A DNA stretch of 64,000 nucleotides from an uncultured Chloroflexia bacterium. Its GTDB lineage: Bacteria > Chloroflexota > Anaerolineae > CG2-30-64-16. The translations under genes were made by a program, and so were the position numbers. The notes under the pieces are model-generated. The model made no database searches, was not told where the DNA came from, and saw only the letters and a program-made list of their open reading frames with translations. The stretch lies in assembly GCA_963774265.1 (NCBI GenBank), contig CAVZDU010000001.1, positions 896,001-960,000 of the forward strand. The letters run 5' to 3'. Shown here in pieces: positions 4,974 through 34,097 of this stretch (positions are counted from its first letter, which is position 1; every line of letters starts with the position of its first letter).

Positions 4974-5658
4974 TTAGCGTCGCAGCAATGCGCGTAACTC
5001 CGCGCGGATGGCTGCTAGCTCCGGGTCTTCCGGCTCTGATCGGTGCGGTCCCGTTAACGGCACGAAGCGCACGTCGCCAAGCCGCCTGGCGTGTAACAGG
5101 CCGGCGTCATCCTTCTCGATGCACCACAGCACCTGGTCCCAATGTACCACGCCCACGGGAATGACCAGGCGGCCGCCCTTGCCGAGCTGCTGGATGAGTG
5201 CTGGCGGGACCTCGGCAGGTGCGGCGGTCACCATGATCGCGTCGTATGGCGCGTGTTCCGGCCATCCCAGCCAGCCGTCGCCCGTTTGAACCGCGACCGG
5301 GTAACCCAGTTGCTGCAATCGCTCGCGCGCGGTGGCGGCGAGGAGGGGCAGCGTTTCGATGCTCCAGACATGCGGGGTGATATGCGCCAGGACTGCTGCC
5401 TGGTATCCTGATCCCGTGCCGACCTCCAGCACGCGGCTGTCCCTCTTCAGGCCCAGGGCTTGCGTCATTCAGCGCGACGATGTACGGCTGCGAGATCGTT
5501 TGGTTCAGACCGATCGGCAGCGGCGCGTCCTCATAGGCGGCGTCCGCAAATTCGTGCGGGACGAACAGATGCCGGGGAACCGAGGCCATGGCATCCAGCA
5601 CCACGGGGTCGGTGACGTCCAACCATCTTGGCGGCCAATGAGAACGCGTCGTTGTCAT
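4974..5658 (-). CDS. pcm: Protein-L-isoaspartate O-methyltransferase (one apparent frameshift near 5469)
   Basis: N-part [28 protein letters not shown] joins [24 protein letters not shown] in another frame. Confidence 0.88.
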
Positions 5659-5677
5659 GGTGCGACCAGACGCCTCT

Positions 5678-7126
5678 TTAGTATGCGCGTGCAAAGACCG
5701 CCACGCGGTCTGTCCGTTTGCCGGTGTAGAAACAGACTCCCTCGCCTTCCGGCTTCTCGAACGGGAAGCAGCGGATGGTCGCTTTCGTCTCTTCCTTGAT
5801 GCGGTCTTCGTCCTCGCTGGCGCCGGCCCAGTGGACGCGGATGAAGCCGGCCTGGCCTTCGAGAATCTGCTTGAACTCGTCGTAACTCCGGGCGGTGTGT
5901 GTGTTCGCATCGCGGAATGTCGTCGCGCGTTGCAGCATGGCCGCCTGGATGGCCGTGAGCATGCCTTTTGTCGCCTCGGCGACACCGTCCACCGGCACGC
6001 CGAACGTCTTGCCTTCCTTGCCGGGCATGTCGCGACGCGCGAAGACGACTGCGTTCTGCTCGACGTCGCGCGGACCGATCTCGATGCGCAGTGGCACCCC
6101 GCGCATTTCCCAGTCGTTGAACTTGAAGCCGGCGCTCAGCTCGTCGCGGACGTCCAGCTTGACGCGCACACCCGCGGCTTTGAGCGTCTCAGCCACGCGG
6201 CCGGCATACTCGGCCACCGAGGGTCGCTCGGCTTCTTTGCGCCAGATCGGCACGATCACGGCCTGATACGGCGCAAGCCTTGGCGGCAGCATCAAGCCCT
6301 GGTCATCGCCGTGGGCCATGATGATGGACCCAACCATGCGTGTGCTCACGCCCCAACTGGTTGTCCACGCGTGATCCAGCTCGTTGTTTTGGTTCAGGAA
6401 CGTGATGTCAAATGCCTTGGCGAAGTTTTGGCCCATGAAGTGACTGGTGCCGGATTGCAGCGCCCAGCCGTTGCCGGTCATCGCCTCGATCGTGTAGCTG
6501 TCGATGGCGCCCGCGAACTTCTCGCGTTCGCTTTTCTTGCCCTGAATTACCGGGATAGCCGCCTCGTTGACCGCAAAATCGGTGTACACCCCCAACATGC
6601 GGATCGTCTCTTCGATGGCTTCCTGCTCGGTTGCATGTGCGGTGTGGCCTTCCTGCCACAGGAATTCCGTCGTCCGCAGGAACAGCCGTGTGCGCATCTC
6701 CCAGCGCACTACATTGGCCCACTGGTTGATCAGCAGGGGCAGGTCGCGATACGAGCGAACCCACTGGCTGTACATGTGTCCGATGATCGTCTCGGAGGTC
6801 GGCCGGACCACCAGCGGCTCATCCAGCTCTTTGCCCCCGCCATGTGTCACGACAGCCAACTCTGGCGCGAAGCCTTCGACATGCTCCGCTTCCTTTTGCA
6901 GGAAGCTCATCGGAATGAGCAACGGGAAGTACGCGTTCACGTGCCCCGTTTCTTTGAAGCGCCGATCCAACGCGGCTTGAATGTTCTCCCACAGGGTGTA
7001 ACCGTACGGCCGGATAACCATACAACCCTTGACCGGCGAGTAGTCTGCCAGTTCCGCCTTCTGCACCACGTCAGTGTACCAGCGCGAATAGTCCTCACTC
7101 CGCGGTGTTACGCCCTTCTCTGCCAT
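5678..7126 (-). CDS. proS: Proline--tRNA ligase, archaeal/eukaryote-like type
   Basis: [37 protein letters not shown]-terminal FARAY. Confidence 0.96.
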
Positions 7127-7248
7127 CAGAACTTCTCCTATCCTCGAAACCCATGCCTGGGATTGGAATCATGGTATGCTGCGGCGCGCCGCAACCTGCG
7201 ACCCGGTCACCGGCAACCTGGCTATGATGCCCTCCTGCCCTGGGCCGG

Positions 7249-7800
7249 TTACCCGAGGGGCGGAGGGCCGGGAGGTGTTGGGGGTGTTTTCAGTGCGGAG
7301 ATGACCTGCGCCGGGGTGTCCACGATCGTGGCCAGGCCAGCGATGGATGCGCCAAGGTCTGAGTGCGACGTCAGCGCAGCAACGAGCGACCGCCACTCCG
7401 CTCCGAGCAGGACCAACGGCCTGCCGTTCAACGAGCGCGTTTGCAGCAAGCTCCACACCAGCGTCACCTCTGACAGTGTACCAATGCCACCGCGCACCGC
7501 CACAAAGCCATCCGCACGCTCGATTATCGTTTCGAGGCGCTCGAGCAGGGACGGGGCCTTGACCTCACCGGTCAGCCACTTGTTGCACGGGAGGGGATCA
7601 AAGATCGCACAGGTCACGCCGATGGCCTGCCCACCGGCTTCGGCCGCGCCGCGGCTGACCGCAGCCATGCTGCCGCCGTACCCGCCGGAAAGGACGGTGT
7701 AGCCTGCGCCTGCCAGCCCGCGGCCGAGCTCGTACGCTTCGGCCCACAACGGGCTATCCTCGTCTCGACGAGAACTGCCGAAAACCGCGATCGTCTTCAT
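7249..7800 (-). CDS. LOG/DprA-like Rossmann-fold nucleotide-binding protein (LOG family)
   Basis: AVFGSS, SGGYGGSMAA, GGIGTLSE motif. Confidence 0.85.
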   Translation of the reverse strand: MKTIAVFGSSRRDEDSPLWAEAYELGRGLAGAGYTVLSGGYGGSMAAVSRGAAEAGGQAIGVTCAIFDPLPCNKWLTGEVKAPSLLERLETIIERADGFVAVRGGIGTLSEVTLVWSLLQTRSLNGRPLVLLGAEWRSLVAALTSHSDLGASIAGLATIVDTPAQVISALKTPPTPPGPPPLG

Positions 7801-12168: not shown

Positions 12169-15100
12169 CTAGGACCCTAAGTCCAGTATCCGGCGGCTGG
12201 ACTCGCGCTCCAGGCCCTGCGCCACGGCAAATTGTTCCGCCACGAGCCGGTCAAAGTCGACTTTGTCCAACGCCAGAGTGCTGATGTGGGTGAGTGCACG
12301 AGACGGACGCGGTGCGCGGCACCGACAGCAGCAGCGCGATTTCTCCTAAATATTCCCCGGGCCCGCGTTGGGCCACTGTGATCGTCTCACCTGCGCGCTC
12401 GGCCAACACCTCCACCCGTCCGGATTGGATGACGTAGAACGTTTCGCCAACCTCACCCTGGCGCATCAGGTACGCCCCAGCCAGGTAACCCTCTTCGCGC
12501 ATCTGGGCGGCGATATGCTGGATTTGCGAGCCGTCCATCTCTGCGAAGAGCGGGATGCGCCGCAGTAGCTCGGCGCGCGTCACCGACCGGTCCAGTTTGT
12601 CGCGCATGGCGAACCGGTCCTTCACCATGCGTTCGAAATCCCCGCGGCTGAGGCAGAGGAGGGTCGTGGGCACGGTGGCGACACAACTTGCTGTACGTGG
12701 CACGTCGCGCAGCAGGGCGGTTTCGCCGAAATGGCCGCCGCGCCCTAACTGATTGACGACCGCACTGATTCCTCGCTCGTCGCGCTGGCGCACCTCCACG
12801 TGCCCCTGGTGAACGATATAGAAGCGGTCCCCGGCCTCGCCCTGGCGGATGATCGCCTCGCCCGCGGCGTATCGCGTGGGGATGAGGCGCGTGGCTAATG
12901 CCGCGAGTTCGTCTTGATTCATAGTGGCGAGGAGCGGCATGCCGCGCAGGAGGAGAGTGACATCCCGATTGGTCGCGGCGAAGCCCGAGCTGAGCGCTGA
13001 GGCCCGCGGCATGAGCCGGAAGAGATACTGCGTGCCGATCTCCCGCACTTCCCACGGCAGGCCGTCGAACGCGCAGCGCAGCGCGGCGAGGGTAAAGGGC
13101 TCCCCCATCTCGGCCGCGGCCAGATCTAGCAGTGTGCTAAGCGCCGCGGCGTACGCTTCGCCCCGACGGATGAGCGGAAGATCGGGGGGCAGCGCGTCCT
13201 GCAACTGCCCCGCCCCCAGGCTCACCCGCCAGCCCGCTGCCAGGGCATAGCCGTTGAACTGCCCTGCAATCGCAGCCGCGCTGCGACGGCCCGCGATCTC
13301 GATCAGGTGGGCATGTATTCCGCCGGCCGTCGCCGCAAATGCTTGTTGCAGCCGGCGCGCGTCGCCGCTAAGCGCAAGATCGCCCTCCCGACGCGCCAGG
13401 CGGTTTTCGGCCGAGACGGCGTCGGCGGCGACCGCGCGGGTGTATGCCAGGTGGTGCAAGTAAAGCCCCGACGCCAGGAGCAGGTAGGGGAGAGCCGGTG
13501 GCAGGTGCGTGAGCGCAAAAATCGCCAGTCCCGCAAGCGCGGTCGTCACGGCGGTCCAGGCCGGCGCAGCGCGCGTCCTCCAGAACGCGGCGAGCGTGGG
13601 GATCAGCAGCGCCGCGGCCAGCCACGGAAGCTCCACCGCGTTGAACGCCAGGTATGCCGCGGCGTCGCCTCCCTTCCAGCCGGCCTGCACGAGTACGACG
13701 AATAGGCAGTAGCCCACCCCGGCGCCGAGCCCTACGGCCGCCTTTTCGGCCGCGGTCGCTTCCCGCAGGTTGGCGCCGGCAAACAGCAGCGCAGCCCCTA
13801 ACAATAGCCCGGCGCTGCTCAATAGTCCGAAAGCTGTGTGAGGGTTGCGCCATTCGCCGGCGGCGGAAGTGAGGCCAGTGAGCTCGAACAACGCGAGTGC
13901 GAGCGCGGCCGCGGCCCAAACGGTGTAGGCGGCTGCGAAGCGTGAGCCCGCATAGCCGCGGGCGCTTCGCCAGCCGAACCAGGTCGCCGCGATCAGCGCG
14001 GCAACCCCGACCAACTGCGCGACGAGCGGGTAGTCCAGCAACTCCGGCAAGGCCGCCAGAAGGGTGCTCGCGAGGAGGAGCAGTGCGAACACACGCCAGA
14101 GACTGCGGAACAGGCCGCGACGCTGGGCCGCGGCCAACCAGCCTCGGACCAGCCGGTATGGGATCGCGCCAAGGACTGCCACAAATAAGGCGCTGATCAC
14201 GACCCCGAGCAGCCCCAGCGCCCAGCGCCCGGGTCCGGCCCCGCCTTCCCATAGGCTGCGCACGCCTTGTACTAAGCGCGTCTGCCAGAAAACCAGGCCA
14301 GCGTAGACGGCGTAGACCGTCCAGGCTGCTGCCAGCAGGCCAAACACCACGAAAATCTGCTCTTCGGCCGTCAACCTGGCCCGCTGCTGTGGCTGCGCCA
14401 TGCGGGGCAGGCGCATCTCACGTACTTTTGCCGGCAGGCCGATACGCAAGAACTCCATGGATTTGCGTCGCAACTGGGAGATTCCCAGCCAATCCATGAG
14501 CAGGTAGTAACCGTCCAGTTCCAGTAGGGGGTTGAGGTTAATAAAGACCAGGATGTAGCAAGTAAAGGCGAACTTGAAGAGCAGGGGGTTGGGCGGCAGC
14601 ACCGGCCAGGCGACCATAACCAACGTGACCAGTCCGGCCAGGATCAACCCGGAGTATGGGCCAGCCCAGGTGACTGCCAGGCGCGCGCGCTTTCCCTCAA
14701 GCCACATATCGGTTGTGTCCACGAAGAACGCGGGCATACCGAAGTAGATCATCACGCCGGCCCGCCGGACCTCACGGCGGTAGTGCTTGACCGTCAGGGC
14801 ATGTGCCAACTCGTGCAGGAAAACCGCGACGAACTGGGCGGCAATGAGCATGACAAGGCCAAGTCCATATGAACCGGCTTCGCTCACCAGGCTGTATCTA
14901 CCTGATATGAACAGCTTGCCGTATAAGACCAGGCCTACCAGGCTGAGCACCACATAGAGGATCTGTGCCGGCTTGGTGAATAGCAGCCAGCCCGCGGCTT
15001 TATAGAGACGATCCAGCGCGCCGTCCAGTCCGCTGATCGCCAGGGGGGTTTGCAGGAAGGCGTGCCAGAGGCGCCCCAGGCGCACACGCAAGCGGCGTCC

Positions 15101-15508
15101 CTCCAGGCTCTCATGCACTTGCCGGTAGACGCCCACAGGTTTGTCAGTCAGGAATCCGTTGATCCTGAGCCCGGTCACTAGCCCGGCGACGCGGCCGAAC
15201 GCGAAGGAGCCGTATTGGCCAAAATAGGCCACCACCAGATCCTTCACCGTCCGCGTGCCGTCCATTAGCTCCCACAGGAAGGCATCCCGGTCGCTGAGTT
15301 GATAATAGGTTTTCGTCGTAGGGTTTTTGATAACAGTGTAAGGACCGTCCCGACCGTCCAGCCGGCTCGCGATCACGCCAGGCACAGCCTGTGGTCGGAC
15401 CATCGCCACGTCGAACCGCTCCTGCAACCATGCCCACAACCCCGTACGACCCTCATCGGGCCGTCCGGCGTCGAGCCGCAGGTTTTCCCAGAGCGATGTG
15501 GCAGCCAT
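12169..15508 (-). CDS. RRE(PqqD-like)-M50 site-2 protease-membrane region-tandem cNMP-binding domain fusion (frameshift near 12300)
   Basis: N-terminal KNP..YYQL..AFLWELMDGTRTVKDL winged-helix pattern; HELAH and NLNPLLELDG; two CNB domains (FGETALL..PRTAS, LGEIALL..PRTAS); C-terminus continues in another frame to TAG 12169. Confidence 0.85.
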
Positions 15509-15642
15509 GTGTCTGTTTCGCCCCTCACTCCCCTTGCGGGGATGTTCCACGCGCGGCAAGACCGACAGAGCCAAGGAGTGGAAACATTCACCTGTTTCTA
15601 CCCCTTGGACCTCAGTCGGTCAATGTATCTTTTTCGTCAGTA

Positions 15643-16596
15643 CTACACCAGCGTGCCCGGCAGCTTGCTCAGAACGATCGCGAGTTGCTGTGCGGAGAGC
15701 TGGGCTAATTGTTGTGCCGAGAGACTGGCGGCTTGTTCAGCCGTCATGGCCGACAATTGCTGGGCCGACATATGGCTGAGCTGCTCGGCGGATAGGGCGA
15801 CCATCTGCTGCGCCGACATGTGACTGAGTTGCTCGGCGGAGAGGCTGGCCATCTGCTGGGCCGACATGTGGCTCAGTTGCTCGGCGGAGAGGGCGGCCAT
15901 CTGCTGGGCCGACATGTGGCTCAGTTGCTCGGCGGAGAGGCTGGCCATCTGCTGGGCCGACATGTGGCTCAGTTGCTCGGCGGAGAGGCTGGCCATCTGC
16001 TGGGCCGACATATGGCTCAGTTGCTCGGCGGAGAGGCTGGCCATCTGCTGGGCCGACATGTGGCTCAGTTGCTCGGCAGAGAGGCTGGCCATCTGCTGGG
16101 CCGACATGTGGTTCAATTGCTCGGCGGAGAGGGCGGCCATCTGCTGGGCCGACATGTGGCTCAGTTGCTCGGCGGAGAGGGCGGCCATCTGCTGCGCCGA
16201 CATGTGGCTCAGTTGCTCGGCAGAGAGGCTGGCCATCTGCTGCGCCGACATGTGACTGAGCTGCTCGGCGGAGAGGCTGGCCATCTGCTGCGCCGATATG
16301 TGGCTGAGCTGCTCGGCCGAGAGGCTAGCCGCTTGCTGGGCTGCCTGGCTGGCAGCGGTGGCTTGGCCGCTCAAAGCTGAGAGGAGGCCGAGCGCGGTGG
16401 CCTTGGAGACGCGCTCGTCCAGGACGCCAGCGAAAGAGTCCATAGTCTCGAAATCGATAGCCTTCAATGCGGCGCTCTCGGACGCAGTCAGATCATAACC
16501 TGTCAACGCCACATCGGGCCGTGCAAACAGCGCATTGCGGAACGCGCTATCGGTCACGGCCCTGCCGATGATCGCCTCCATCGCTTGCTTGGACAT
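15643..16596 (-). CDS. NHLP-clan (Os1348/Franean1_4349-like) leader fused to a tandem 16-aa repeat domain, 317 aa
   Basis: MSKQAMEAIIGRAVTDSAFRNALFARP..L.GYDLT..E..AL..LDERVSK leader pattern; AAGGAG RBS before ATG 16596. Confidence 0.8.
   Translation of the reverse strand: MSKQAMEAIIGRAVTDSAFRNALFARPDVALTGYDLTASESAALKAIDFETMDSFAGVLDERVSKATALGLLSALSGQATAASQAAQQAASLSAEQLSHISAQQMASLSAEQLSHMSAQQMASLSAEQLSHMSAQQMAALSAEQLSHMSAQQMAALSAEQLNHMSAQQMASLSAEQLSHMSAQQMASLSAEQLSHMSAQQMASLSAEQLSHMSAQQMASLSAEQLSHMSAQQMAALSAEQLSHMSAQQMASLSAEQLSHMSAQQMVALSAEQLSHMSAQQLSAMTAEQAASLSAQQLAQLSAQQLAIVLSKLPGTLV
15754..16329 (-). repeat. Coding tandem repeat, 12 x 48 bp (ASLSAEQLSHMSAQQM)
   Basis: Counted directly in DNA and protein; followed by three degenerate 8-aa units. 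Confidence 0.95.
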
Positions 16597-16695
16597 CTTG
16601 GTGCTCCTTTTTGGGCTCGAGGTGTTTATTTGTTCGACTGGCCCCATGTTACGGCAAAAGCTGCGCCCGCGCTGCGATGCGCGCCACACCGGCGG

Positions 16696-16711
16696 AGTGA
16701 TCTACATCACA
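16696..16711. promoter_or_regulatory. CRP-type operator TGTGA-N6-TCACT upstream of the repeat-protein gene
   Basis: Minus strand reads TGTGA TGTAGA TCACT; candidate -10 TAACAT at 16651-16646 without a good -35. Confidence 0.75.
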
Positions 16712-16717
16712 CCCCGG

Positions 16718-17407
16718 TCAATAGTTGATCTTCCGCCACAGCCCGACGCGATCCAGGATCGTGATCTTCTGGCCGACCAACTCGATCAGACCTTGATCCC
16801 GGAAAGTCGAGAGAACCTTGTTGACCGTCTCTCGGGAACTGGCGACCCAACTCGCAAGCTCCGCCTGTGTCAGGCCCAGATCCAGCTCCAGGCCGCTCCC
16901 CCGCGGGGACTGCGCGCCGAAACGGTCAGCCAGCTCCAGGAGTCGCATGGCGACCCGGCCATTGGCGTCAAGAAAGGCCAGGCTCTCAGCGTATGCCGTC
17001 GTGTACCGCAATCGTGCGGCGAGAATCTCGAGGAGCCGCACCGCCAGGCGAGGATGATCCTCCAACTGTTGAAAGAAATCCTCCCGTCGCAGAGCTAAAG
17101 TCTGGGTAGGTTCCACCGCCACTGCACTGGCAGAGCGGGGGCGACCGTCGAGAAAACCCAGTTCGCCGATGACTTCGCCCGGGCCGTAAACGTTCAAGGA
17201 AATCTCCTGGCCGGATTCGCTGAGAATGAAGATGCGCACCCGGCCCGATTCGATGATGTAGAGGGTTTGGCCCGGGCTATCCTTGTGGAAGATGAAAACT
17301 CCCTTGCCGAATACGCGCGTCACCAGGCAAGTCGCAACTTCGGCAAGCTCTGAATCGGACAGGCCGTTAAGGAGCGAGGACTTGCGTAACTTGTCTATTC
17401 CTGGCAT
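16718..17407 (-). CDS. crp: Crp/Fnr-family cAMP-binding transcriptional regulator
   Basis: CNB motif GELGFLDGRPRSASA; HTH LTQAELASWVASSRETVNK. Confidence 0.92.
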   Translation of the reverse strand: MPGIDKLRKSSLLNGLSDSELAEVATCLVTRVFGKGVFIFHKDSPGQTLYIIESGRVRIFILSESGQEISLNVYGPGEVIGELGFLDGRPRSASAVAVEPTQTLALRREDFFQQLEDHPRLAVRLLEILAARLRYTTAYAESLAFLDANGRVAMRLLELADRFGAQSPRGSGLELDLGLTQAELASWVASSRETVNKVLSTFRDQGLIELVGQKITILDRVGLWRKINY

Positions 17408-17442: not shown

Positions 17443-20400
17443 TCAGCCAATCATATTCAACAACCTTATCAGCGCCTCGATGTTCTTGCGTTTCCCCTCA
17501 TCACGGAGGCGCCGAGCAGCAGTCGTGAAGTAACGGTGCTCGCGGGAGAACTTCAGTTGACGACGATACCATTCAGTCTCGCTCACTGGTGCGCCAAGGG
17601 CCGCCAGTTCGGCGCGCAGGGCCTGGCTCCGGTCGAGAGCATCATCCCGACCGAGGTTATCCAGGTCAGCGTCGGCGAGGATCTCCTCGAGGGGCGTGCG
17701 TGGAGACTGCGGCAGGCGGGTGGCCAGGATCATGCCTTGCACCGCCGCCACCTGCTCCGACGTGAAGCCGAACCGGGGCAAGACCTGTGCCGCGATCTCC
17801 GCGCCGGCGCGTTCGTGTTCGTGGCTGGGAACCGTCCCCCTGGGACGTTGAACCACAAACCCGATATCGTGGTAGACGGCGCCGATCTCCAGCAGCTGCG
17901 CATCTTCGGGGCTGACCCCCACCAGGGTTGCCAGACACTGGGTCGCGGGCAGCACGTCGTCTCGTGTGTGGGCCAGGCTGTGATAGGTCAGCTCGGGGGC
18001 TAACTCGCGTTCCAGGCGGTTCAGTGCGTAACGGATCGCACCCTCAAAATCTGGCCCGGCGTGCGCAGTGCCGTCTCCGTCCCACAGGGATGGTTCCCAA
18101 TAGTAAGCGGAGCTCAGGACGGCCGACTGCGCATCCAACTCCAGGCTTTCGCAGAGGAGTTGTTCGGCCTCCCCGAAAGCGCCGTGCGCCTGGGCTTGCT
18201 TGCCGGCCGTTTCCAGGTATTCGATGGCCTTCGCCGGCTCACCGCCATGACGCCAATGATGCGCCAGGATGACGTACCAGGGTGAGAGGTCGGATCGATA
18301 GTTTTCTTCGTACTTTTCGGCGGCCCGCCGGTGAAGACGTCGCCGCTGCATGAACAGCATCGAGGTGTACGCAGCATGATGAACGGCCCCGTCTGCGAAG
18401 GCATACGACCTATCCGCCACTCCCCCCGCGCCGCAAATAAGCAAGCCCTGCTCTGCCAGGCCATCCAGGAGATCATTCAGATGCGCCTTTTCGGAGTCGA
18501 CCGGGAAGATTTCGCGGAGCATCGTGCTCACGAAGGTCGTGCCCAGGACGCTGGCCACCTTCAGCACTAATTGCTCGGACGGCGAGAGGTGATCCAGCCG
18601 ATTGCGGATCGCTGTCGAATATGGGGCCATTCCCTTCGCCTCACCAGCGGAAACACCGGTCGGACGGTAGACAACCACCGGCTGCATGAAACCCTTGACT
18701 CGAATCGGCGGCAATGCCGTGAAGGCCACCTGCCCCTGGGCTGCCCGGCAAATCTCCTCATCACACAAGATATCGCCTTCCGGCGCTGCGATCATGAGAC
18801 GCGCTGCCAGGTTGACCCGATCGCCCTGGATGCCGTAGGTGCGACGTCCCCTGCCGCCATAGGTGCCCACCAACGCCTGGCCCACGGCGACCCCGATCCG
18901 GATCGATCCCATGAACGCTAGCTCCGGCGGCGGTGAGAGCAGCTCAAGCGCAGCACAGACTGCGCGGGTCTCGTCATCGCTGTGCGCGATGGGCGCACCG
19001 AACGCAAGGCAAATATAACTCCCCTTGTCTCCCATGGTCAGGTGATCGAAGATTGCCTCGTAACCCTCGGCCACCCGTTGCACCCACCGGACATAAGCGT
19101 CGAGTTTTGTCCCCGCCTCTTCGTCCGCGTCGTAGTCGATACCTTTGAAGTTGAGGAACAATGCCGACACGGGGCGCAGCTCGGAGAGGAACTGCTTGTG
19201 GTCACTGCGGGCCCGCTCGTACACGGCAGGCAGCACCCATGGCCGGTACTCCGCATCGGAGAGGCCTTCTGTTGGCAATTCGGGCCACGGCGTGGGCGAC
19301 ACTCCTTCGACTGGGCCGCAGACGACGGCGATGGGCCTGTCCCGGTCATCTGTGCGCCATTCGCGTATGGTGAGTTGAAGGGTGCTCCGCTCGACTATGT
19401 CACCCCCCACGACAACTTCACCTCGATTGGCTGCGTGTTCGGCTGCGGCGAGCCGGTCGAGGGTCCGCCCAGCGATGGCCTCGATCACCTGGATCCCAGG
19501 ATCGCCGACCAGGAGGCGGCGCACCGGACCAGCCACGACCGCAACCTTGGCGGCCAACTCGAAGGTGGCGCCTTGGGGTGTGGTGACGGTGTTGCAGAGG
19601 GCCATCGCCTCTTGCATGGCCAGGCCGCACGCGACCGCAACCAGCTCTGCTGGCACACCTTGGGCACGTGGGAGTGATGTCGCGTCGTCAAACCAACACG
19701 TGATCGCGTCGCCGGCAAAGCCGATGACGCTGCCTCCGTAGCGGTGCACTTCGTCGATCAGCGCGGTGTAGATCTGGCTGATCGTGCGAGTCAGCTCTTC
19801 GGCGCCGCGTTCGAGCCCGAGTTCCTGCGCCAACGCCCCCGTCAGGGGGGTGAAGCCGGAGATGTCTGCGAACAGGGCCGCCCCGGTCGCCCGGTCGGGC
19901 AGGGTTTCGCCGCGCGCGAGCGCATGCTGGCGGTCCACCGGTATGTAAACGGTCAGCGGTTCGCCTTGCGCCCGTTTCATCTCCTCCATGTCGAGGCGTA
20001 ATTGCTCCAATTGCTGTCTCAGTCGTTGCTCGCGCAGGTAGACCTCGCGGGCCATACGCTGGAAGACGCGGGCCAGCCGGCCGAGGGCATCCTCGCGGGC
20101 GCCGACCGCGTCCAACGTGGCAGGATCGAAGCGGCCGGACTCCACCGCCTGGGCTGCGTCTGCCACGCGGCCTGCCTGCTCCAGGTACTCCAGCTCCAGG
20201 TCGCGCAGCCGCTTCTGTGCCAGGGACGCTTGGAGACGTGCCTGGAGCAGGGCGGGCTTGAAGGGCTTTGGCAGGTAGTCGGTTGCTCCTAGCTGGATGC
20301 AGCGGACCACGCTGTCGATTTCGTCGAGGGCCGAGATCATGATAACCGGAATGTGACGCAGGTGCGGGAGCGCCTTGACGTGGGCCAGTACCTGGTAGCC

Positions 20401-20634
20401 GTCCATCTCGGGCATCAGAATGTCCAGGAGGATCACATCGAATCCCACGGGGGTGGGTGCAAGACTCGCCCTTACCGGAGAGGGCTTTTGCTCCAACAGC
20501 GCGACGGCCTGGCGCCCATCCTCAGCGAGCGTTACGGTATAGCCCTGGTCTGTCAGGAGGCGCGCGAGTTGCTTACGGTTGACGATGTTGTCGTCGACAA
20601 CCAGGACGCGCCCGGTTCCCTGCGAGTCGGGCAT
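17443..20634 (-). CDS. Response regulator-class III adenylate/guanylate cyclase (two cyclase domains)-helical region-HD domain fusion
   Basis: REC (VVDD..LLDILMP..PKPF); FADISGFT/FAGDA; second domain MGDKGS..VNLAARLM; C-terminal YHS..HT..HDIG..HE..ADADL. Confidence 0.88.
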   Translation of the reverse strand: MPDSQGTGRVLVVDDNIVNRKQLARLLTDQGYTVTLAEDGRQAVALLEQKPSPVRASLAPTPVGFDVILLDILMPEMDGYQVLAHVKALPHLRHIPVIMISALDEIDSVVRCIQLGATDYLPKPFKPALLQARLQASLAQKRLRDLELEYLEQAGRVADAAQAVESGRFDPATLDAVGAREDALGRLARVFQRMAREVYLREQRLRQQLEQLRLDMEEMKRAQGEPLTVYIPVDRQHALARGETLPDRATGAALFADISGFTPLTGALAQELGLERGAEELTRTISQIYTALIDEVHRYGGSVIGFAGDAITCWFDDATSLPRAQGVPAELVAVACGLAMQEAMALCNTVTTPQGATFELAAKVAVVAGPVRRLLVGDPGIQVIEAIAGRTLDRLAAAEHAANRGEVVVGGDIVERSTLQLTIREWRTDDRDRPIAVVCGPVEGVSPTPWPELPTEGLSDAEYRPWVLPAVYERARSDHKQFLSELRPVSALFLNFKGIDYDADEEAGTKLDAYVRWVQRVAEGYEAIFDHLTMGDKGSYICLAFGAPIAHSDDETRAVCAALELLSPPPELAFMGSIRIGVAVGQALVGTYGGRGRRTYGIQGDRVNLAARLMIAAPEGDILCDEEICRAAQGQVAFTALPPIRVKGFMQPVVVYRPTGVSAGEAKGMAPYSTAIRNRLDHLSPSEQLVLKVASVLGTTFVSTMLREIFPVDSEKAHLNDLLDGLAEQGLLICGAGGVADRSYAFADGAVHHAAYTSMLFMQRRRLHRRAAEKYEENYRSDLSPWYVILAHHWRHGGEPAKAIEYLETAGKQAQAHGAFGEAEQLLCESLELDAQSAVLSSAYYWEPSLWDGDGTAHAGPDFEGAIRYALNRLERELAPELTYHSLAHTRDDVLPATQCLATLVGVSPEDAQLLEIGAVYHDIGFVVQRPRGTVPSHEHERAGAEIAAQVLPRFGFTSEQVAAVQGMILATRLPQSPRTPLEEILADADLDNLGRDDALDRSQALRAELAALGAPVSETEWYRRQLKFSREHRYFTTAARRLRDEGKRKNIEALIRLLNMIG

Positions 20635-20635
20635 A

Positions 20636-20995
20636 TCAACTCCTCTCCCGAATGGCCCCCAACGCGGCGTGTGCCTGCTGGTATCCTGCGGCGATGCGGG
20701 CCAGCAGGTCGGTTCCACCCTCGAGAGATCCCGCCTTGGCCAGTATCTCCAGCTCCCGGCATTGTCCCGATAGGGCCAGCGCGCCGAAGTTGGCGCAGTT
20801 GGATTTGAGGCTGTGCGCCGCGCGGCGCACAGCCTCGGCGTCACCCGCGGCCAGTCCTGCCCGCGCGACCCCCAACTGCCGGGGCGAATCCTCGAAGAAT
20901 GTGTCGAGCATTTCTCCGAAAAACTCCATGTCCCCACCGAAGCTTTCCAGAAGTCCGTCCAGCACGGTGCGGTCAATGACGTTGTCTTGTTGCAT
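20636..20995 (-). CDS. Hpt phosphotransfer protein
   Basis: AAHSLKSNCANFGA..L..LE motif. Confidence 0.92.
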   Translation of the reverse strand: MQQDNVIDRTVLDGLLESFGGDMEFFGEMLDTFFEDSPRQLGVARAGLAAGDAEAVRRAAHSLKSNCANFGALALSGQCRELEILAKAGSLEGGTDLLARIAAGYQQAHAALGAIRERS

Positions 20996-21025: not shown

Positions 21026-24000
21026 CTACGCTGTTCCCTGGCACCGAGCGAGCGCAGCCACGAGGTCTTCCACCCGGATGGGCTTGGAGAGGTAGTCATC
21101 CATGCCGGCCTCAAGGCACAGCTCCCGGTCGCCCTGCATCGCGTTGGCCGTCATGGCGATGATGCGCGGCCGGGAGTCTGCCGGCCAACGGGCGCAGATT
21201 TTCCGGGTCGCCTCCAGGCCGTCCATCTCGGGCATCTGCACGTCCATCAGGATCACGTCGTACGGCTGGCGCTCCACCGCCTGGATGGCCTCCAGTCCGT
21301 TCGCGGCCACGTCCGCGCGGTAGCCCATCTGCGCAAGTAACCGCAATGCCAGTTTCTGGTTCACTGCGTTGTCCTCGGCCAGCAGGATGCGCAGCGGATG
21401 GCGCGCCGCCATCGCGGGATCAAGCGCGGGCCGGGCTGCAGCGACGGCCGGCGCGGCCTGCGGTCGCGCGGCGAAGATGCCAGCTAGCGCATCGAACAGC
21501 GCCGAGGGCCGGATCGGCTTGGCCAGGCTGGTGGCAAAGAGGCCGGCAGGGAGGTCCTGACCATGACCGCCCAATGACGAGAGCAGGATCAAGGGCAGAC
21601 GAGGGCTGGATTGGAGATTGAAGATTGAAGATTGCTCAGCCGTCGTAGGTGCCCGATCTTCAAGCTTCGATCTTTCATCTTCAATTCGTCGTATGGCCGT
21701 CGCCAACTCCACGCCGGTCATCTCCGGCATGTGCAGGTCCAGGATCGCTACATCGAACGCGTCCCCGTGGCGCAGCCACGTCAGCGCCTCGAGGGGTGAA
21801 CCGGTGGCACACGAGAGCATCCCCCAGCCCTGGGTCTGGAGCGTAAGGATGCGCCGGTTCGTGGCGTTGTCGTCCACGATCAAGACGCGGCGGCCAGCCA
21901 GTTGCAACTGCACGTCGGCCAGGTGGGGCCGCGGATGAAAGTCGGGGGCCGGCCGGGCAGCAATCGTGAAATGAAAGGTCGAACCCTGGCCTGCGCCCGC
22001 GCTCTCCGCCCACATCATGCCGCCCATCATCTCTGCCAGCCGCTTGCTCACCGCCAGCCCGAGACCGGTGCCGCCGTAACGCCGCGTGGTGGAGGCATCC
22101 ACCTGGGAAAACGCCCGGAATAGTCGATCCAGCCGGTCGGCCGGGATGCCGATGCCGGTGTCGCGGATGGCGAAGTGGAGGCTGTACCTCTCCCCCAGGC
22201 CCTCCCCGCGCAGGGGAGGGGTGAGGGGTGGGGTCCGTTCTACGGTCATCACAACCTCGCCCGTTTCGGTGAACTTGATCGCATTGCTCAATAGATTGAC
22301 CAGGATCTGGCGCAGACGGGTGACGTCGCCGACGATGACCGCGGGCACGTCGGCGGCTATCTGGTAGGCCAGCTCCAGCCCCTCCCCCGCGGCCTTGATG
22401 TGCAGCAGGTCCAGCGCCGACTCCACGCATTCGCGCAGGTCGAAGGGCTGCTGCTCCATCTCCATCTTGCCGGCCTCAATCTTCGAGAAATCCAGGATGT
22501 CGTTGATGATGGTCAGGAGCGCGTCGCCGCTAGACCGGATGGTCTCCGCGAAGTCGCGCTGCTCGGCGTTCAGGGGCGTGTCCATCAGCAGACCGCTCAT
22601 GCCGATGATGGCATTCAGCGGCGTGCGGATTTCGTGGCTCATCGTCGCCAGGAACGCGCTCTTGGCCTGCGTCGCCGCTTCGGCGGTGGCCTTCGCCTGT
22701 CGTAGCTCCACCTGCGCCCGTTTCTGCTCCTCCAGGAGTTGGTAATTCTGGACGAGAACGGCTGTCTGGCTGCTGATCGCTTCGGCAAGTTGCGCATCAT
22801 GCCGGCCGATGTCAGCTCCGTCGGATGGTCGTCCCAAGCACACCACCCCCACTGCCTGCTGCTGGGAGTTGCTGATGGGTGCGATCACCAGCTTGCCGAG
22901 AGCTCGCCGCGATTCGCCCCGCATTCCAAACAAGCTCCTCTCGCTGGTCAATGGGTCATTGATGACCAGGTAGCGGCCCTCGAGCACGCACTGCGCTGCC
23001 AGATCGCCGGCAGTGTGGCCGCACACCTCGAACTGCATCAGGTCAGCGGGGAGGCCGGGGAAGTGTCCGGCGATGCCGCGCAAGGCGTCCGGGCCTTCGG
23101 TCACCTGGTTGTCGTCGGATCGGTTCACCAGAGCAACCCACCAGCGATCCATGTCGACCGATTGGAACATGGACAGCAGCGCTTTCCGCCCCATGTCATA
23201 GTCTGCGGATAGCACCCGATAGGGCACGACGGACATATCGGGGAAGCAGGCTGCAATCTCTTCCGAGAAACCTTGAGCGCGTTGGCGAGCGGTGTACAGG
23301 TCTGAGTAGATAACGGCCACGCGCCCCCGGCCGCCCAATCGATGACTCAGGAAACGGGCTGCCAGGCGCCCGCCACCGCGATTGTCGGCGCCTACATGCG
23401 TGGCAACTTCTACCCCTGCCATTGGCTGATCCAGGGACACGACCGGTATGCCCCGTTGCAGCGCGCGCTGCGCTACGGGCGCGAGCGTGTACTCATTCAG
23501 GGGCACCAGGATCAACGCATCGATGCCGGCGGCAAGCATCTCTTTGACGGCAGCCGCCTGCTCCAGGGCCCGCGTCTCGTGATGTCCCGCCAGGATCAGT
23601 TCGACGCCGGCCTCCGCAGCCGCCATCTGCACTCCGTCGCGAATCTCGCGATAGCCGGCATTTGTCTCATAGTCGCCCAACGCCACACCCAGGGTATACC
23701 GCCGGCTCACCGTCGGCATGATGGCCGGGTCAGTTACGATGGGCTGTTCACCGTCGGTTATGAGTTGCACGGGGAGCAGGACCTCGGCTCCCATCGGCAG
23801 ACCCTCCAACGCCTGCAACGCGGCGATGACCCCGCGCCGTCCGAGTTCGCCCAGGTCTTGCCCGATCGTGGCGCACAGCTTTCCGGCGCGCAGCCCGTCC
23901 CGTCCCAGGTCCGACGCGTTGTAGCCTATCGCCCGAAGATCGTCGTGGCCCAGCTCCCGAGCCGTCTCGATCGCAGCCAACGCCATTTCGTCGTTGACCG

Positions 24001-26128
24001 CAAACACCGCCTCAACGCCGGTGCCCACCTCCAGCACGCCGTCGAACAGGCCGCTCAGGGTCTCAGGCAGGTTTTCGCTGAGCTTCCCAAATCGGCTGAC
24101 CCGGTATAACGCAGTGGCCTGGGCAATCTCCCGGTGCAACTCCTCTTCGGCCTGCTTGCGCTCGGTGATGTCGCGGATGATTTCGATCGCGCCGACGGCA
24201 TTGCCCTCAGCGTCGCGCAGGACGGATGCGGTGCCCATCAGATAGTGCGCACTTCCCCGCAAACGCGGCGCGTAGGTTTCGCCGACCAGGACGGAACCAT
24301 GCCGCTGGATCTGGGCGTGTTCTTTGTCCAGATCCTCCTGCGATTTGAACACCAGGTCGATCAGGATCGGCTGTCGCTTGCCGTAGAAGGGGAGGGCGTA
24401 TTCGTAGTCACCCTTGCCCAGTATCTCCTCCGCCGGGATCCCCGTCATCTCTTCAATGGCCCGGTTCCAGGCGATGACGCGGCCTTCCCCGTCAATCACG
24501 ACCGTTGCATCGGGCAGGAAGTTGATGATGTCGGTCAACCGGCGCTGCGTCTCCTGGGCGGTCGAGTAGAGTCGCGCATTGTCCAGGATGACGGAAGCGA
24601 GCTGGGCAAAGCGGCTCAGGAGTTCTGCCTCCTCCGCGCCGAAGCTCCGGCTTGATTCCGCGCCATACGCCAGGCCGATGACGCCCACAACATGCTCGCC
24701 GGAGGTGAAAGGCACGCCCATGATGCCGCGCATCACACCGCGATCGAACGTTGCTAAGCGGCCGGACCAGGCGTCGTAGTCGTCGATGACCACAGGGTGA
24801 CCTGTCTGCCAAACCGTCCCCACCAGGCCATCCCCCGGCTTCCTATATTCGCCGACCAACCGAGCGAGCGCACCGATGCCGACCTTGCACACCATCTCCG
24901 CTTTCCCTGGATCCAACAGATAGAGGAACCCATGCGGCGCATGCAGCAGTTGGCTAGCTCGCGTGATCAGCGTCTCCAGTAGCTCGTTCACGTCCAGCCG
25001 GCTGATCAGCCCCACGGTCGTCTCGTATAAAGCGGCCAGGTACTGATTTTGCCGCACCATCTCTTCCAGGAGTGCGTCCCGTTCGCGGTTGGCCTCTTTC
25101 GCGACGACTTGGGCCTGCTTCTGTTCGGTCATATCGCGCAACAGCAGCAGGTGTCCGACGATCAGCCCGCGATAATCCTTGAGTGGGGAGAGATCCGGAG
25201 CGTAGTACCGGGCGCCGGAACCCCCCAGGCTGATTTCGGTTGGCTCTGCCACCCCCCCGGCAAGCTGTTCGATGAGATCGGGGCATGCCGGCAGGAGATC
25301 CTGCAATGTTTTGCCGCGGGCCCGCGCGGCTGAAGTAGACAACATGCTTGCCGCCGCGGGGTTCAGGTCGGCGATTCGCCACCGGGCATCCAAGATCACC
25401 ATCCCTTCGCGCATCTGCGCGATCACCGTTTTGCGGGCAGCGTGCAACTGGTCGAAGATGCGGAAGCCGAACAGTGCGATGGCATATGATCCGAAGAGGA
25501 GTGCCAATTCGATAATGAGGGGGTCCAGCGCATTTGTAAGTCTCACGTTGACGACGTCCAGCGCGTACACGACCCGGCCCACAATCATCCCGAACACCAT
25601 CAGCGCCACCGGCAGGCGATGCTGCGGCGAGCGGACGAACAGCCAGAGGAAAGCGGCGATATTGACCAGGATGAGGCTCATTCCATAGCCGGTCCCGATT
25701 CGGTTGCCAATGCCGCGTAGCGGTTGGACAGCCCCATCGACCGCGAACCCGAGCCACATGAGGTGATGGAGATCGTTGGTGATGATCAGCAACAGGCCCA
25801 AGAGGGGAGGAATAGACAGCAGGATCAGGTTGCGGCGGGTCAGCCAGCGTCCGGGGTAGGCATACTCCAGAGCAAAACAAGCCCCGGCGGTGACCAAGGG
25901 CAACTGCCACACCCCTTGGAACTTGAACCAGGCGATTCTCGTCGAAACATCGCCTGCCGCCGATTCAGCGACTGCGCCTGCCAGCCACAGAAACGCGAAC
26001 AGGCAGGCGATCGCGACCGGCTTCGCGCCGGGTACGCTGCGGCGCCGCCAAACGTACAAGCCCAAGGTGCCCAGGAATACCAGAACAGCCAGTCTCGGCC
26101 ATGTGTTGGGCATAGCAAAAAGATCCAT
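21026..26128 (-). CDS. Hybrid histidine kinase: 7TM-PAS-GAF-PAS-GAF(with sugar-binding insert)-HisKA-HATPase-REC-REC
   Basis: HisKA_7TM-like N-terminus; [12 protein letters not shown]; [10 protein letters not shown]; GGTGLGL; two REC domains. Confidence 0.92.
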
Positions 26129-26164
26129 CTTGTTGAGCCTTCCACTGGATCGGTTCTTGTTTGG

Positions 26165-29100
26165 TCAACCTGATTGATCAAGACTGGAGGCCATGCTGCG
26201 GCTCAGCGCCGCCACCAGCTCATCCACACGGATCGGTTTGCTCAAGTAGTCGTCCATGCCGGCCGCCAGGCACAGCTCGCGGTCGCCTTGCATCGCGTTG
26301 GCCGTCATGGCGATGATGCGGGGCCGGGCACCCGCCGACCAATGGGCGCAGATCTGTCGGGTCGCCTCCAGGCCATCCATCTCGGGCATCTGCACGTCCA
26401 TCAGCACCACGTCGTATGGTTGGCGCTCTATCGCCTGGATGGCTTCCAGCCCGTTCGCGGCTACGTCCGCGCGGTAGCCCATCTGGGACAAGAGCCGCAG
26501 AGCCAGCTTTTGGTTCACCGCGTTGTCTTCGGCGAGCAGGATGCGCAGTGGATGGCGCGCCGCCATCTCAGGATCGAGCGCGGCCCTGGCCGGAGTGGTC
26601 CGCGCAGGCTGGCGCGACTGAGCAGGCTGTCGCTCAAAGACACCGAGCAGGGCATCAAATAGCGCCGACGGCCTGATTGGCTTGGTCAGGCTGGCTGCGA
26701 ATAGATCCGGGTCGACCCCAGCCTCGCGGCCGCCCAATGACGAGAGGAGGATCAAGGACAGACGAGGACTGGATTTAAGATTTAAGATTGAAGATTGCTC
26801 AGCCGTCGTAGGTGCCCGATCTTCAAGCTTCAATCTTTCATCTTCAATTCGCCGTATGGCCTCGGCCAGTTCCGCCCCCGTCATTTCAGGCATGCGCTGA
26901 TCCAGGATGGCCAGGTCGAAGGGCTCGCCGCCGTCCAGCCAGTCCAGTGCCTCCTTTGGCGAGGCAGTGGCGCGCGAGAGCATCCCCCAACCCTGCGTCT
27001 GAAGGGTCAGAATGCGCCGGTTGGTGGCGTTGTCGTCCACGATCAGCACGCGGCGGCCAGCCAATTGTGGTTGCTCGCCGGTCAGGTGGGGACGGGTCTT
27101 CAACTCAGTGGCTGCCTGCGCAACGATCGTGAAATGGAAGGCGCAACCGGGCCCTCCCTTGGCCTCTTCGTCCAGGAGGAGTGCAGGCGCTGCCGGCGAC
27201 TCGACCCACATCGTGCCACCCATCATCTCGGCCAGCCGCTTGCTGACGGCCAGGCCGAGGCCGGTGCCGCCGTATTTGCGGGTGGTGGACGCGTCCACCT
27301 GGCTGAAGGCCTGGAACAGGCGGTCGAGGCGGTCAGGTGGAACGCCGATGCCGGTGTCGCGGACGGCGAAGTGCAGTGACACGGAGAGGGGGAGACGCAG
27401 CGAAGGGGAGAAGGTTTCCGTTTCCCCCAAGTGCCGGTCACTGTCAGCCGCGTCCGTGTCTCTCGTCACGGTCACCACCACTTCGCCTGTTTCGGTGAAC
27501 TTGACCGCGTTGCTGAGCAGGTTGACCAGGATCTGGCGCAGGCGCGTGACGTCGCCGACGATGGCTGCGGTGTATCGGGGGCCGATCTGGTAGGCCAGGT
27601 CCAGCCCTTTCTCGGCGGCCTTGATGCGCAGCAGGTCCAGCGCCGACTCCACGCACTCGCGCAGGTCGAAGGGCTGTTGCTCCAGCTCCAACTTGCCGGC
27701 CTCGATCTTGGAGAAGTCGAGGATGTCGTTGATGATCGTCAGCAGGGCATCCCCGCTGTTGCGGATCGTCTCGGCGAAGTCGCGCTGCTCGGCGGTGAGG
27801 GGGGTGTCGAGCAGCAGACCGCTCATGCCGATGATGGCGTTCATCGGGGTGCGGATTTCGTGGCTCATCATGGCCAGGAAGGCGCTTTTGGCCTGGGTGG
27901 CGGCCTCTGCGGTCTGACGCGCTTGCTGCAGATCGCTGATGTCATGGTAAATCACCAGGGTGCTGACTTGCTTGCCCTCGATGATCACCGGCACGGCATG
28001 CAGCTCGACATCCACAAAGCTGCCATCCCGACGGTTTCGACGCGCGATGGCGTGGACGACGGCGCCGGCTTCCGCCCTCTGGGAATAGGCGGCGGCCTCT
28101 GCCCGGACGGTATCGGTCGTCACAAGATCATCGACATTATGGCCGATCGCTTCTTCCTGGAGGTACCCAAACAGGCTCTCGGCCGCTGGGTTCCAAGAGA
28201 GGACGTTGGCATTCTGGTCAACCACGACGACGGCCGCGGGGGTGTTCAGAACCAGGGATTCGAAGTACCGCTTCTCTCGCTGCACCTCACCGTACAATCG
28301 AGCGTTTTCCAGTGCGATGGCTGCCTGGTTGGCGATGGCTTCCAGAAGTGCCTGATCCGACGCATCGTAGGCATTCGGGTCCGTGTAGTGCTGCAGGATG
28401 ATCACACCCAGCACACGCTCGCCCGTCTCGTCTAAGTGCCGGGCACTTTCGGAGTCCGACCCCGCAGCTCCAATCACCATGGGCACGCCCAGCCATGACG
28501 CAGCCGGCGGCCCGTAGACCGCAACGCCTGTCATGGCCGTGAGTTCCTCTGCTGACACATTTTGCACGAAGACCGACTTGCCGTGCTTGACGATATAACC
28601 CGCCATGCAACCATCAAGCGGAAGCCGGGTGCCCGGCTGCACCTCGCCCGGGTTGCGGCTGAGGACATACTCAACCTCTTGGCGGCCAGGGTCATAGAGC
28701 GCGATGATCATGTTTTCGGCATACATCACGCGCGCCGTCTGCTCGGCCATGAGCTCGAACAGACCCTGCAAGTCCAGCCTGGACGACAGGGCCTGGCCGA
28801 TGTCGGACAGCAGTCGATAGCGCGTCTCACTCCGCTGTACAGCTTCCTCCGCAACCTTGCGCTCCGTAATGTCGCGGATGATTTCGATCGCGCCCACGTT
28901 GTTGCCCCTGGCGTCGCGCAGAACGGATGCCGTGCCCAGTAGATAGCGTGCGCCCCCCCGGAGATGGGGCACGTAGGTTTCGCCGATCAGAGTGGCGCCA
29001 TGTCGTTGGACCTGAGTATATTTCTGCTCCAGCTCTTCTTCGGGCGTGAACACCAGGTCGATCAAGATCGGTCGTCGCTCGCCGTAGAAGGGGAGCGCGT

Positions 29101-30802: not shown

Positions 30803-30815
30803 ATCGCTTCCCCGA

Positions 30816-34058: not shown

Positions 34059-34097
34059 TGCTTCTAGGTCGCGAAGGAGTCCTTCATCGCATGTCTT

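Follow-up and report, generated by a model that had tools for sequence, protein, structure and literature searches.

The precursors of the NHLP and Nif11 leader-peptide families, as Haft et al. reportedly set out in 2010, are exported by C39-peptidase ABC transporters. In the NHLP leader family proper, a Gly-Gly type cleavage motif goes together with an exporter carrying a C39 peptidase domain, and long, conserved leaders are usual in the NHLP clan as a whole. Within this clan, the Os1348/Franean1_4349 family is described by two curated models, NF038399 (Os1348 family NHLP-clan protein) and PF14407 (Frankia_peptide), the latter of which emerged from a survey of ATP-grasp-linked peptides, as a passage in PMC8939145 states. 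Our literature search found no paper on a product of the family. Here we analyse a precursor gene of this family, P0001, in a stretch of 64,000 nucleotides (hereafter the window) from an uncultured Chloroflexia bacterium (assembly GCA_963774265.1, contig CAVZDU010000001.1, positions 896,001 to 960,000), together with the membrane protease gene that follows it. The precursor is probably a substrate of that protease, released upon a cyclic AMP-type signal, because the two share a conserved operon in which the membrane protease is accompanied by cyclic-nucleotide sensors. Coordinates of the features are collected in Table 1.

The likeness of the precursor to the Os1348/PF14407 family lies in its N-terminal domain, which matches end to end above the cut-offs: residues 4-64 cover all 63 positions of NF038399 (1-63) with 71.1 bits (cut-off 40), and the same residues score 52.4 bits against PF14407 (cut-off 48). 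These hidden Markov model (HMM) searches bear out the leader type that an earlier note, made from the sequence of this DNA, had proposed; relatives bear these family names in NCBI records. In a six-frame search of the genome, NF038399 scored 75.4 bits at the precursor, the sole Os1348-type gene found. Conservation in the family ends sharply after ...R[IV]SKA, 19 columns of the 66-residue leader are invariant among 14 orthologues, and an AlphaFold2 model shows the leader as four short helices with a predicted local distance difference test (pLDDT) score of 67-82. Like the precursors of the NHLP and Nif11 families, which NCBIfam naming places in the same clan, this one joins a hypervariable C-terminal part to a leader that is long, conserved and helical. 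The precursor differs from them, however, in scoring only 14 bits against TIGR03793, the model of the NHLP leader proper (cut-off 50.9), which falls short of membership, in lacking a Gly-Gly motif anywhere in its 317 residues, and in that no C39 peptidase (PF03412) was matched in its own genome, which is 84% complete and is the scope of the enzyme searches reported here. It also stands apart from its own family, with a tail of 251 amino acids (aa) against a median protein length of 96 aa, and the ATP-grasp context in which PF14407 was defined was not recovered: the nearest match to ATP-grasp_4 (PF13535, the only ATP-grasp model searched) is ~240 kb away on the contig, and no ATP-grasp family occurs among the conserved neighbours at the 18 loci compared below.

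Unlike NHLP and Nif11 systems, the locus has no cyclodehydratase, lanthionine synthetase or radical-SAM gene nearby. YcaO had 0 matches in the genome, LanC-like proteins also had 0 in a search that was silent in every control genome too, and the nearest radical-SAM matches are ~98-100 kb from the precursor. The claim of the earlier note that no maturation gene lies close by therefore holds for YcaO, LanM and radical SAM, but it overlooked the adjacent protease with its PqqD-like, HExxH and cyclic nucleotide monophosphate (cNMP)-binding parts. Judged as a ribosomally synthesized, post-translationally modified peptide (RiPP) system, the locus has a leader with a processing enzyme bearing a recognition element alongside, and no core-tailoring enzyme was found either among the conserved families of the 18 loci or in the YcaO, LanC-like and radical-SAM searches.

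The architecture of this protease is that of the daptide protease MpaP/DapP (NF041824), of YydH/LiaK and of the TMcin protease TmcP, in each of which a PqqD-like element is followed by an HExxH intramembrane metalloprotease encoded beside the precursor. Section 7 of the TMcin preprint (PMC13252029) demonstrates by mutation the removal of a RiPP leader by a site-2 protease (S2P)-clan HExxH enzyme. The window protease consists of a PqqD-like domain, an HExxH site-2-type core, ~9 further transmembrane (TM) helices and two cNMP-binding domains, the helices and the cNMP-binding domains being additions relative to MpaP/DapP. Residues 82-434 match NF041824 (daptide RRE-intramembrane metalloprotease, RRE standing for RiPP recognition element) with E 1.1e-41, the YydH/LiaK epipeptide protease model is matched with E 2.8e-12, and Pfam M50 and DUF3267 reach 15.2 and 16.3 bits, each under its cut-off. 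The isolated N-terminal domain has an E value of 7.8e-5 with PF05402 (PqqD), which matches 13 of 14 orthologous protease N-domains. Approximately 13 TM-like segments are spread over residues 205-701, and an NLNPLLELDG motif lies at about residues 346-355. A distal ...LDG motif is typical of M50/site-2-type proteases; with an HExxH motif near a TM segment, a distal LDG and a PqqD-like N-domain, the protein shows the features of a site-2-type leader peptidase fused to an RRE. The other daptide genes, however, are missing from the conserved set of the window module, and the leader is of another class. The cyanobacterial 'bacteriocin-type transport-associated' cNMP-binding proteins (TIGR03896), which occur with an ABC-transporter partner in the context of ribosomal-peptide export, likewise tie a cNMP module to the processing or export of ribosomal peptides, whereas in the window it is the protease that carries the cNMP domains as a fusion, with no ABC-transporter partner involved. 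TIGR03896 matches this region with E 1.1e-12, at 48 bits against a cut-off of 161. At least 958 homologues of the protease were found at E <= 1e-10 among 8000 candidates scored, and the annotation of the family is generic only.

For protease residues 400-870 (window 12965..14377), AlphaFold2 with 10 orthologues gave a confident all-helical model with a pLDDT of 81.5 and a predicted TM-score (pTM) of 0.76. Foldseek found nothing for this model in the PDB at E <= 0.001, and a transporter fold was not recognised; a PDB sequence search with the N-terminal half of the protease also gave 0 matches. As a side observation, residues ~511-717 bear some likeness to seven-transmembrane-helix (7TM) bundles (G-protein-coupled receptor-like and rhodopsin-like rows, VIA-align Z 8-10.3), at a level below that of chance for helical bundles, and the same model has a helical cytosolic domain just before the cNMP domains.

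The second half of the precursor is an array of octapeptides that PF20080 (ALTTAQ repeat) matches in 9 stretches with 52.7 bits (gathering score 26.4), and in this genome PF20080 matches are confined to the precursor reading frame. Both halves of the precursor thus belong to curated families already known, and the domain pair PF14407 plus PF20080 has been precomputed for a relative. The nearest Atlas clusters and the database matches P0153-P0157 are ALTTAQ proteins built, like the array, of [LM][ST]xxQ octads, but their octads are degenerate and stand in proteins of 317-499 aa with other N-termini, whereas here 12 near-identical units follow a RiPP-type leader. Our literature search found no paper mentioning the ALTTAQ repeat, which therefore carries no known function.

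By Tandem Repeats Finder there is a single array (15758..16341), with a 48-nucleotide (nt) period, 12.2 copies, 92% matches, 0% indels and a score of 923, and the translation agrees with it on 12 units of 16 aa with the consensus ASLSAEQLSHMSAQQM, each a pair of xx[LM]SA[EQ]Q[LM] octads, followed by three degenerate octads, as the earlier note had described. The minus-strand frame is open over 15643..16689, and the ATG at 16596 gives the 317-aa protein, which ends in a cap with the C-terminal residues LSKLPGTLV. Inner units are identical or nearly so in DNA. Over the 192 codons of the 12 units, departures from the consensus are synonymous in 22 cases and non-synonymous in 8, so the precursor frame is the constrained one and its peptide sequence is kept. 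The composition confirms that the protein is free of Cys, and it has no Trp either. It has no TM helix (the highest 19-residue hydropathy is 0.89), and the peak of hydropathy begins at residue 68, in the linker. Modelled by AlphaFold2 without an alignment, the precursor has a mean pLDDT of 53.6, and the suggestion that the repeat forms a solenoid gains nothing from the model, which is equally mute on a coiled coil or disorder. The hydrophobic moment of the array peaks at 90 degrees, not 100, which merely restates the 8-residue period. Two opposite-strand open reading frames (ORFs), 15820..16380 and 15866..16255, are open only through the repeat and were set aside as by-products, and weak HMM rows on the precursor were taken as compositional (CAAP1 with 38 bits and no passing stretch, CCRG-2 with 22.2 bits against a cut-off of 24, and likewise Bflower_2, TFIIS_M and SAM_3).

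Among five relatives that share the unit type ASLSAEQLSHMSAQQM and the cap, the number of units is lower than 12 wherever it can be counted: P0002 (leader identity 91%) has 181 aa and ~4 units, P0004 (85%) has 162 aa and ~3 units, and L036 (89%) is complete with 161 aa and ~2.5 units, while the contigs of L034 (93%) and L035 (88%) end inside the array. The unit is thus kept while the copy number shifts. The neighbours are also kept in L034 and L036, with the cyclase 76%, Crp 86-89% and the protease 79% identical. The family was detected in 21 of 41 genomes (40 related ones and our own) and, within the genus, in 3 of the 7 others; the open frames there have 70-204 aa, and this array is in none of them. 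A search for matching sequencing runs found 14 DNA runs from 7 studies and 0 RNA runs. Logan contigs from four soil and wastewater runs (78-385 nt, depth 2-6) cover the flanks and array pieces of 78-126 nt. None of these short-read contigs, which come from near-identical strains, bridges the array; they stop at its edges. The count of 12, which the reads neither confirm nor refute, is therefore that of the assembly. In the comparison with relatives that the earlier note had called for, copy numbers were about 2.5-4. The proposed binding of Cu(I) or Ag(I) by the His and Met residues was weakened and is unsupported, because P0004 retains His and has Leu or Phe at the Met positions.

The gene order around the precursor is conserved well beyond these close relatives. 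Scanning one genome per species yielded 17 loci, and every one of their titles names a Chloroflexota lineage. Of these loci, 14 have a protease orthologue downstream of the precursor, with 46-67% identity over the N-terminal half. The exceptions are L004, whose contig breaks off within the precursor, and L017 and L018 (Chloroflexales), where no protease occurs within 4.5 and 2.1 kb, respectively. At 14 of 17 loci the gene directly 5' of the precursor is a Crp orthologue, with L010 offering only 206 nt of upstream sequence, and L034-L036 also have Crp upstream and the protease downstream. In eight loci precursor and protease are separated by an extra gene encoding 418-456 aa; these genes form one cluster, identified by Pfam as M16 in L003. 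The window locus has no M16 gene, and the genome encodes 27%-identical ones on another contig only. When all ORFs of the 17 loci and the window were clustered (18 loci), the conserved forward-strand families were the precursor (17 loci), protease/Crp/cNMP (16), a cyclase-type protein encoded upstream (10) and M16 (8), the remaining clusters being rejected as antisense shadows. No tailoring enzyme is among the conserved gene families of the 18 loci, and an unlinked one may exist.

A shared upstream element accompanies the shared gene order. With a criterion of at most one mismatch to TGTGA-N6-TCACA, which we take to be the CRP box consensus, within 300 nt upstream, 18 of 21 loci have a CRP-type box, 90-150 nt 5' of the precursor, compared with a mean of 0.13 loci and a maximum of 2 over 500 shuffles. 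The box is missing from L003 and from the two loci in which Crp and protease are absent as well. Between precursor and protease there are 68 nt by the longest ORF, or 134 nt to the likely protease ATG. The 146-nt intergenic RNA folds with -59.8 kcal/mol (z = -4.08; 0 of 200 shuffles fold as well), and a promoter and terminator scan reported no sites, including no terminator-like site in the spacer. The hairpin in this spacer may govern how abundant precursor transcripts are relative to those of the protease.

Taken together, these observations lead us to regard the precursor, tentatively and with a little less than even confidence, as the substrate of a conserved Chloroflexota module comprising a cyclase, Crp, an NHLP-clan precursor, in some loci an M16 peptidase, and the membrane protease. 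The upstream cyclase would make a cyclic nucleotide that turns on transcription of the precursor via Crp and its box, and the same nucleotide would gate the protease via its fused cNMP domains. The PqqD-like recognition element would dock the leader, and the protease would cut once in the junction (about residues 66-80), freeing a whole unmodified tail of ~240-250 aa. Here the freed tail would be an ALTTAQ-type helical repeat polypeptide whose length, and not its sequence alone, evolves. A single cut near the leader is favoured because 46-58% identical proteases of orthologous systems serve unrelated units that have no inter-unit motif in common, because the window locus has no second peptidase, and because ALTTAQ octads elsewhere belong to larger proteins. 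That cNMP-controlled, leader-guided cleavage releases the repeat tail whole is accordingly our working model, to which we would give somewhat less than an even chance.

Several points weigh against this account. Binding of the precursor, its cleavage, its export and the dependence on cNMP are proposals drawn from sequence. The protease scores 143.2 bits on the daptide model against an equivalog cut-off of 300, so only the architecture can be said to be common to it and the daptide peptidase, and its PqqD match, at 23.4 bits, sits exactly on the gathering cut-off. A PDB profile search with the recognition domain gave, as its best hit, a lasso PqqD chaperone at E 0.33. Classical site-2 substrates and TMcins have a TM helix, which the precursor lacks. 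There is no linked exporter at the locus, and the 84%-complete genome gave no C39 match. Near-identity of the units would be expected of a multi-core precursor as well, tails of 2-5 residues (L011, P0059 and P0040) fit poorly with the tail as the product, and the array has no confident AlphaFold2 fold (pLDDT 34-50). A predicted complex of the recognition domain (alignment A3) with the leader (A4) scored 0.06 against a mark of 0.32, which bears neither way.

The behaviour of the tails across the family helps to weigh the alternatives. A HMMER search with residues 1-75 gave 592 representatives at E <= 0.001; 150 of them, together with P0002, were analysed (151 sequences). Their median length is that given above, 24 reach 150 aa or more, and their tails run from 2 to more than 300 residues, so that the leader is conserved and the tail hypervariable. 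Among the 68 tails (out of 151) that the junction pattern delimits, 9 contain Cys. With tandem repeats defined as 3 or more copies that are at least 70% identical, they occur in 10 of 152 family sequences, the window precursor included. The 22 precursors of the 17 loci include three further repeat tails, namely (GAGLGADAGSAA)n in L004, (GITGDHGITGGP)n in the 374-aa protein of L009, and 12 copies of GVPAIDRGGEELT in L015, as well as Ala-rich quasi-repeat tails in L002 and L003. These units are unrelated to one another and to ASLSAEQLSHMSAQQM, and tandem-repeat tails arose several times independently on the leader. The earlier note was right that a repeat is present, but in describing it as standing 'instead of a short core' it overstated the oddity, because family tails range so widely in length and unrelated repeat tails recur.

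An unlikely alternative is that the precursor is multi-core, the array being cut, following or alongside removal of the leader, per unit or half-unit into many copies of one linear peptide of 8 or 16 residues, so that a signal or bioactive peptide is amplified, as happens with ribosomal peptide precursors that have repeated cores. The protein does contain several copies of a possible core, 12 in all, near-identical and with the excess of synonymous changes noted above. The same unit occurs in variable copy number in close relatives, as if the dose evolved, other family members have tandem units of 5-21 residues, and eight related loci have M16 as a second peptidase. This reading keeps a modest chance because it, too, predicts identical units and changes in copy number. 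However, the window locus lacks M16 and the only M16 genes in the genome are distant (27% identity, other contig); the conserved proteases face unrelated units, and no shared boundary motif flanking the units was found among the orthologous repeat tails; neither a tailoring enzyme nor an exporter is conserved; and this family of units is otherwise embedded in proteins of 317-499 aa.

Rather improbable, in our estimate, is a reading in which the N-terminal domain is the functional product, for instance a cytoplasmic regulator of the Crp/cyclase circuit, and the tail an adjustable appendage, serving as tether, timer or inhibitor until the cNMP-gated protease takes it off or degrades it. All 66 residues of this domain are conserved, with the 19 invariant columns already mentioned, and the median length in the family is 96 aa. 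Tails shrink to 2-5 residues where M16 and the protease persist (L011), and it is these very short tails that keep the idea alive. The family also occurs beside cyclic-nucleotide signalling genes in every context examined, including protease-free L017. Against this, the units and the cap are kept in close relatives and synonymous changes dominate, which would be odd for a mere spacer; the fusion of an RRE to a protease is the known signature of leader removal; and NHLP-clan leaders are normally long and conserved in any case. A last reading, very improbable in our view, takes the 12 copies for an artefact of assembly, or for a recent, function-free neutral expansion of a slippery 48-nt repeat in a gene tolerant of any tail. 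In its favour are the absence of any read or contig spanning the array, the two metagenome contigs (L034 and L035) that end inside it and the near-identity of its inner units in DNA. Against it, the reading frame is unbroken from the first unit to the last and indels are at 0%, the differences between units are ordered and mostly synonymous, the unit type recurs in five independent relatives (P0002, P0004 and L034-L036), and the window protease itself is recorded on a contig of 1,506,020 bases, so that the assembly was probably capable of crossing 576 nt.

Table 1. Features of the precursor-protease locus (window coordinates, all on the minus strand).
Feature	Position	Strand	Basis
Precursor coding sequence P0001, 317 aa + stop	15643..16596	-	ORF and translation
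Leader domain, residues 1-66, Os1348/Franean1_4349, NHLP clan	16399..16596	-	NF038399, PF14407
Junction/linker, residues 67-89 (TALGLLSALSGQ...), mildly hydrophobic; putative cleavage region	16330..16398	-	Semi-conserved in closest relatives
Tandem array of 12 ALTTAQ-type octad pairs (16 aa or 48 nt each), residues 90-281	15754..16329	-	Repeat finding and PF20080
Three degenerate octads and C-terminal cap ...QQLAIVLSKLPGTLV + stop	15643..15753	-	Cap kept in P0002, P0004, L036
Shine-Dalgarno GGAG, 8-11 nt 5' of precursor ATG	16604..16607	-	Printed upstream sequence
CRP-type box TGTGATGTAGATCACT, 100-115 nt 5' of precursor ATG, 6 nt past crp stop	16696..16711	-	Consensus match
Crp/Fnr-family regulator, cNMP_binding + HTH_Crp_2	16718..17407	-	HMMs
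Response-regulator receiver + adenylate/guanylate cyclase + HD domain protein	17443..20976	-	HMMs
Long imperfect RNA hairpin in precursor-protease spacer, U-tract absent	15560..15621	-	RNA folding
Membrane protease gene, 1085 aa; its ATG is residue 23 of the 1107-aa ORF 12251..15574	12251..15508	-	HMMs; database copy P0158 = 1085 aa
PqqD-like RiPP recognition element, ORF residues 81-137	15164..15334	-	PF05402
HELAH zinc motif, ORF residues 254-258, directly after TM-like segment	14801..14815	-	ORF translation
Two cyclic-nucleotide-binding domains, protease C-terminus	12254..12934	-	PF00027, 133.6 bits, 2 stretches

Upstream of the cyclase gene, at 21026..34931 on the minus strand, three hybrid histidine kinases (1700, 1545 and 1080 aa) are followed by a SpoIIE phosphatase. 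The kinases contain 7TM, MASE11, GAF, PAS and periplasmic-binding domains and two receivers each, and all four genes are co-oriented with the cyclase-Crp-precursor-protease genes. Elsewhere in the window, at 5657..7702 on the plus strand, a 681-aa ORF without a Pfam match is overlapped by a 482-aa ORF on the opposite strand.

Other loci vary the theme. In an Oscillochloris metagenome-assembled genome (L017:2430-6219), a 72-aa family member ending in GGKGFL lies 2 nt past a gene for a cyclase-AAA-TPR protein and is followed by a CHASE4 histidine kinase; Crp, box and protease are all absent. Because this member adjoins a cyclase gene, the link between the family and cyclic-nucleotide genes holds without the protease. 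In L006 (6601-7233) and L016 (5258-5854), a stand-alone HD gene, 61-63% identical to the HD end of the window cyclase protein, sits between two precursor paralogues, and a small extra cNMP-binding protein is encoded just 3' of the protease in L007 (11413-11814, confirmed by Pfam) and also in L010, L015 and L016. Within the family, the leaders of P0041, P0044, P0046, P0052, P0055, P0089, P0095 and P0104 end in ...RISMS; the tails of this subfamily are rich in Gly, Ala, Asp and Glu, often repetitive, and end in WL.RLA.ALG...GG...Y, mostly with a C-terminal Tyr. L025, L027, L028, L030, L031 and L033 represent another NHLP-clan subfamily in the same class, with proteins of 76-86 aa that end in ...FW or ...LW. 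In P0024, P0062, P0066 and P0101 the leader-type domain occurs in two to seven copies or at the C-terminus.

Three aspects of the locus were not found in the literature: the conserved module of cyclase, Crp, precursor, in part M16, and RRE/S2P/cNMP protease, CRP box included; the way in which tandem-repeat tails have grown on one leader repeatedly and independently; and a leader peptidase of RiPP type with cNMP sensors fused to it. This negative covers part of the matching papers, and the RRE-family tables of the daptide and RRE-Finder work may list the protease family.

If the proposed processing is true, NHLP-clan leaders would serve more than the presentation of short cores to modifying enzymes; they would also present long, unmodified, fast-evolving repeat polypeptides to a membrane protease. 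It would furthermore be a rare case in which the synthesis of a ribosomal peptide, through the CRP box, and its processing, through the fused cNMP sensors, are both wired to a second messenger. A more far-reaching picture, which we consider a long shot, is that filamentous Chloroflexota use the module to release strain-specific ribosomal peptides or proteins, with a cyclic nucleotide as the gate. Hybrid kinases would feed the response-regulator cyclase, and the nucleotide would induce the precursor by way of Crp and the conserved box and open an RRE/site-2 protease/7TM machine that would cut the tail and pass it outward, with neither an ATP-driven exporter nor tailoring chemistry; the fast-evolving repeat tails might then be lineage-specific signals or matrix polymers. 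Since the protease family is large (at least 958 members) and generically annotated, one experiment would, if the proposal is true, name many genes, and the occurrence of many unrelated repeat tails on one leader is a natural series for studies of protease recognition.

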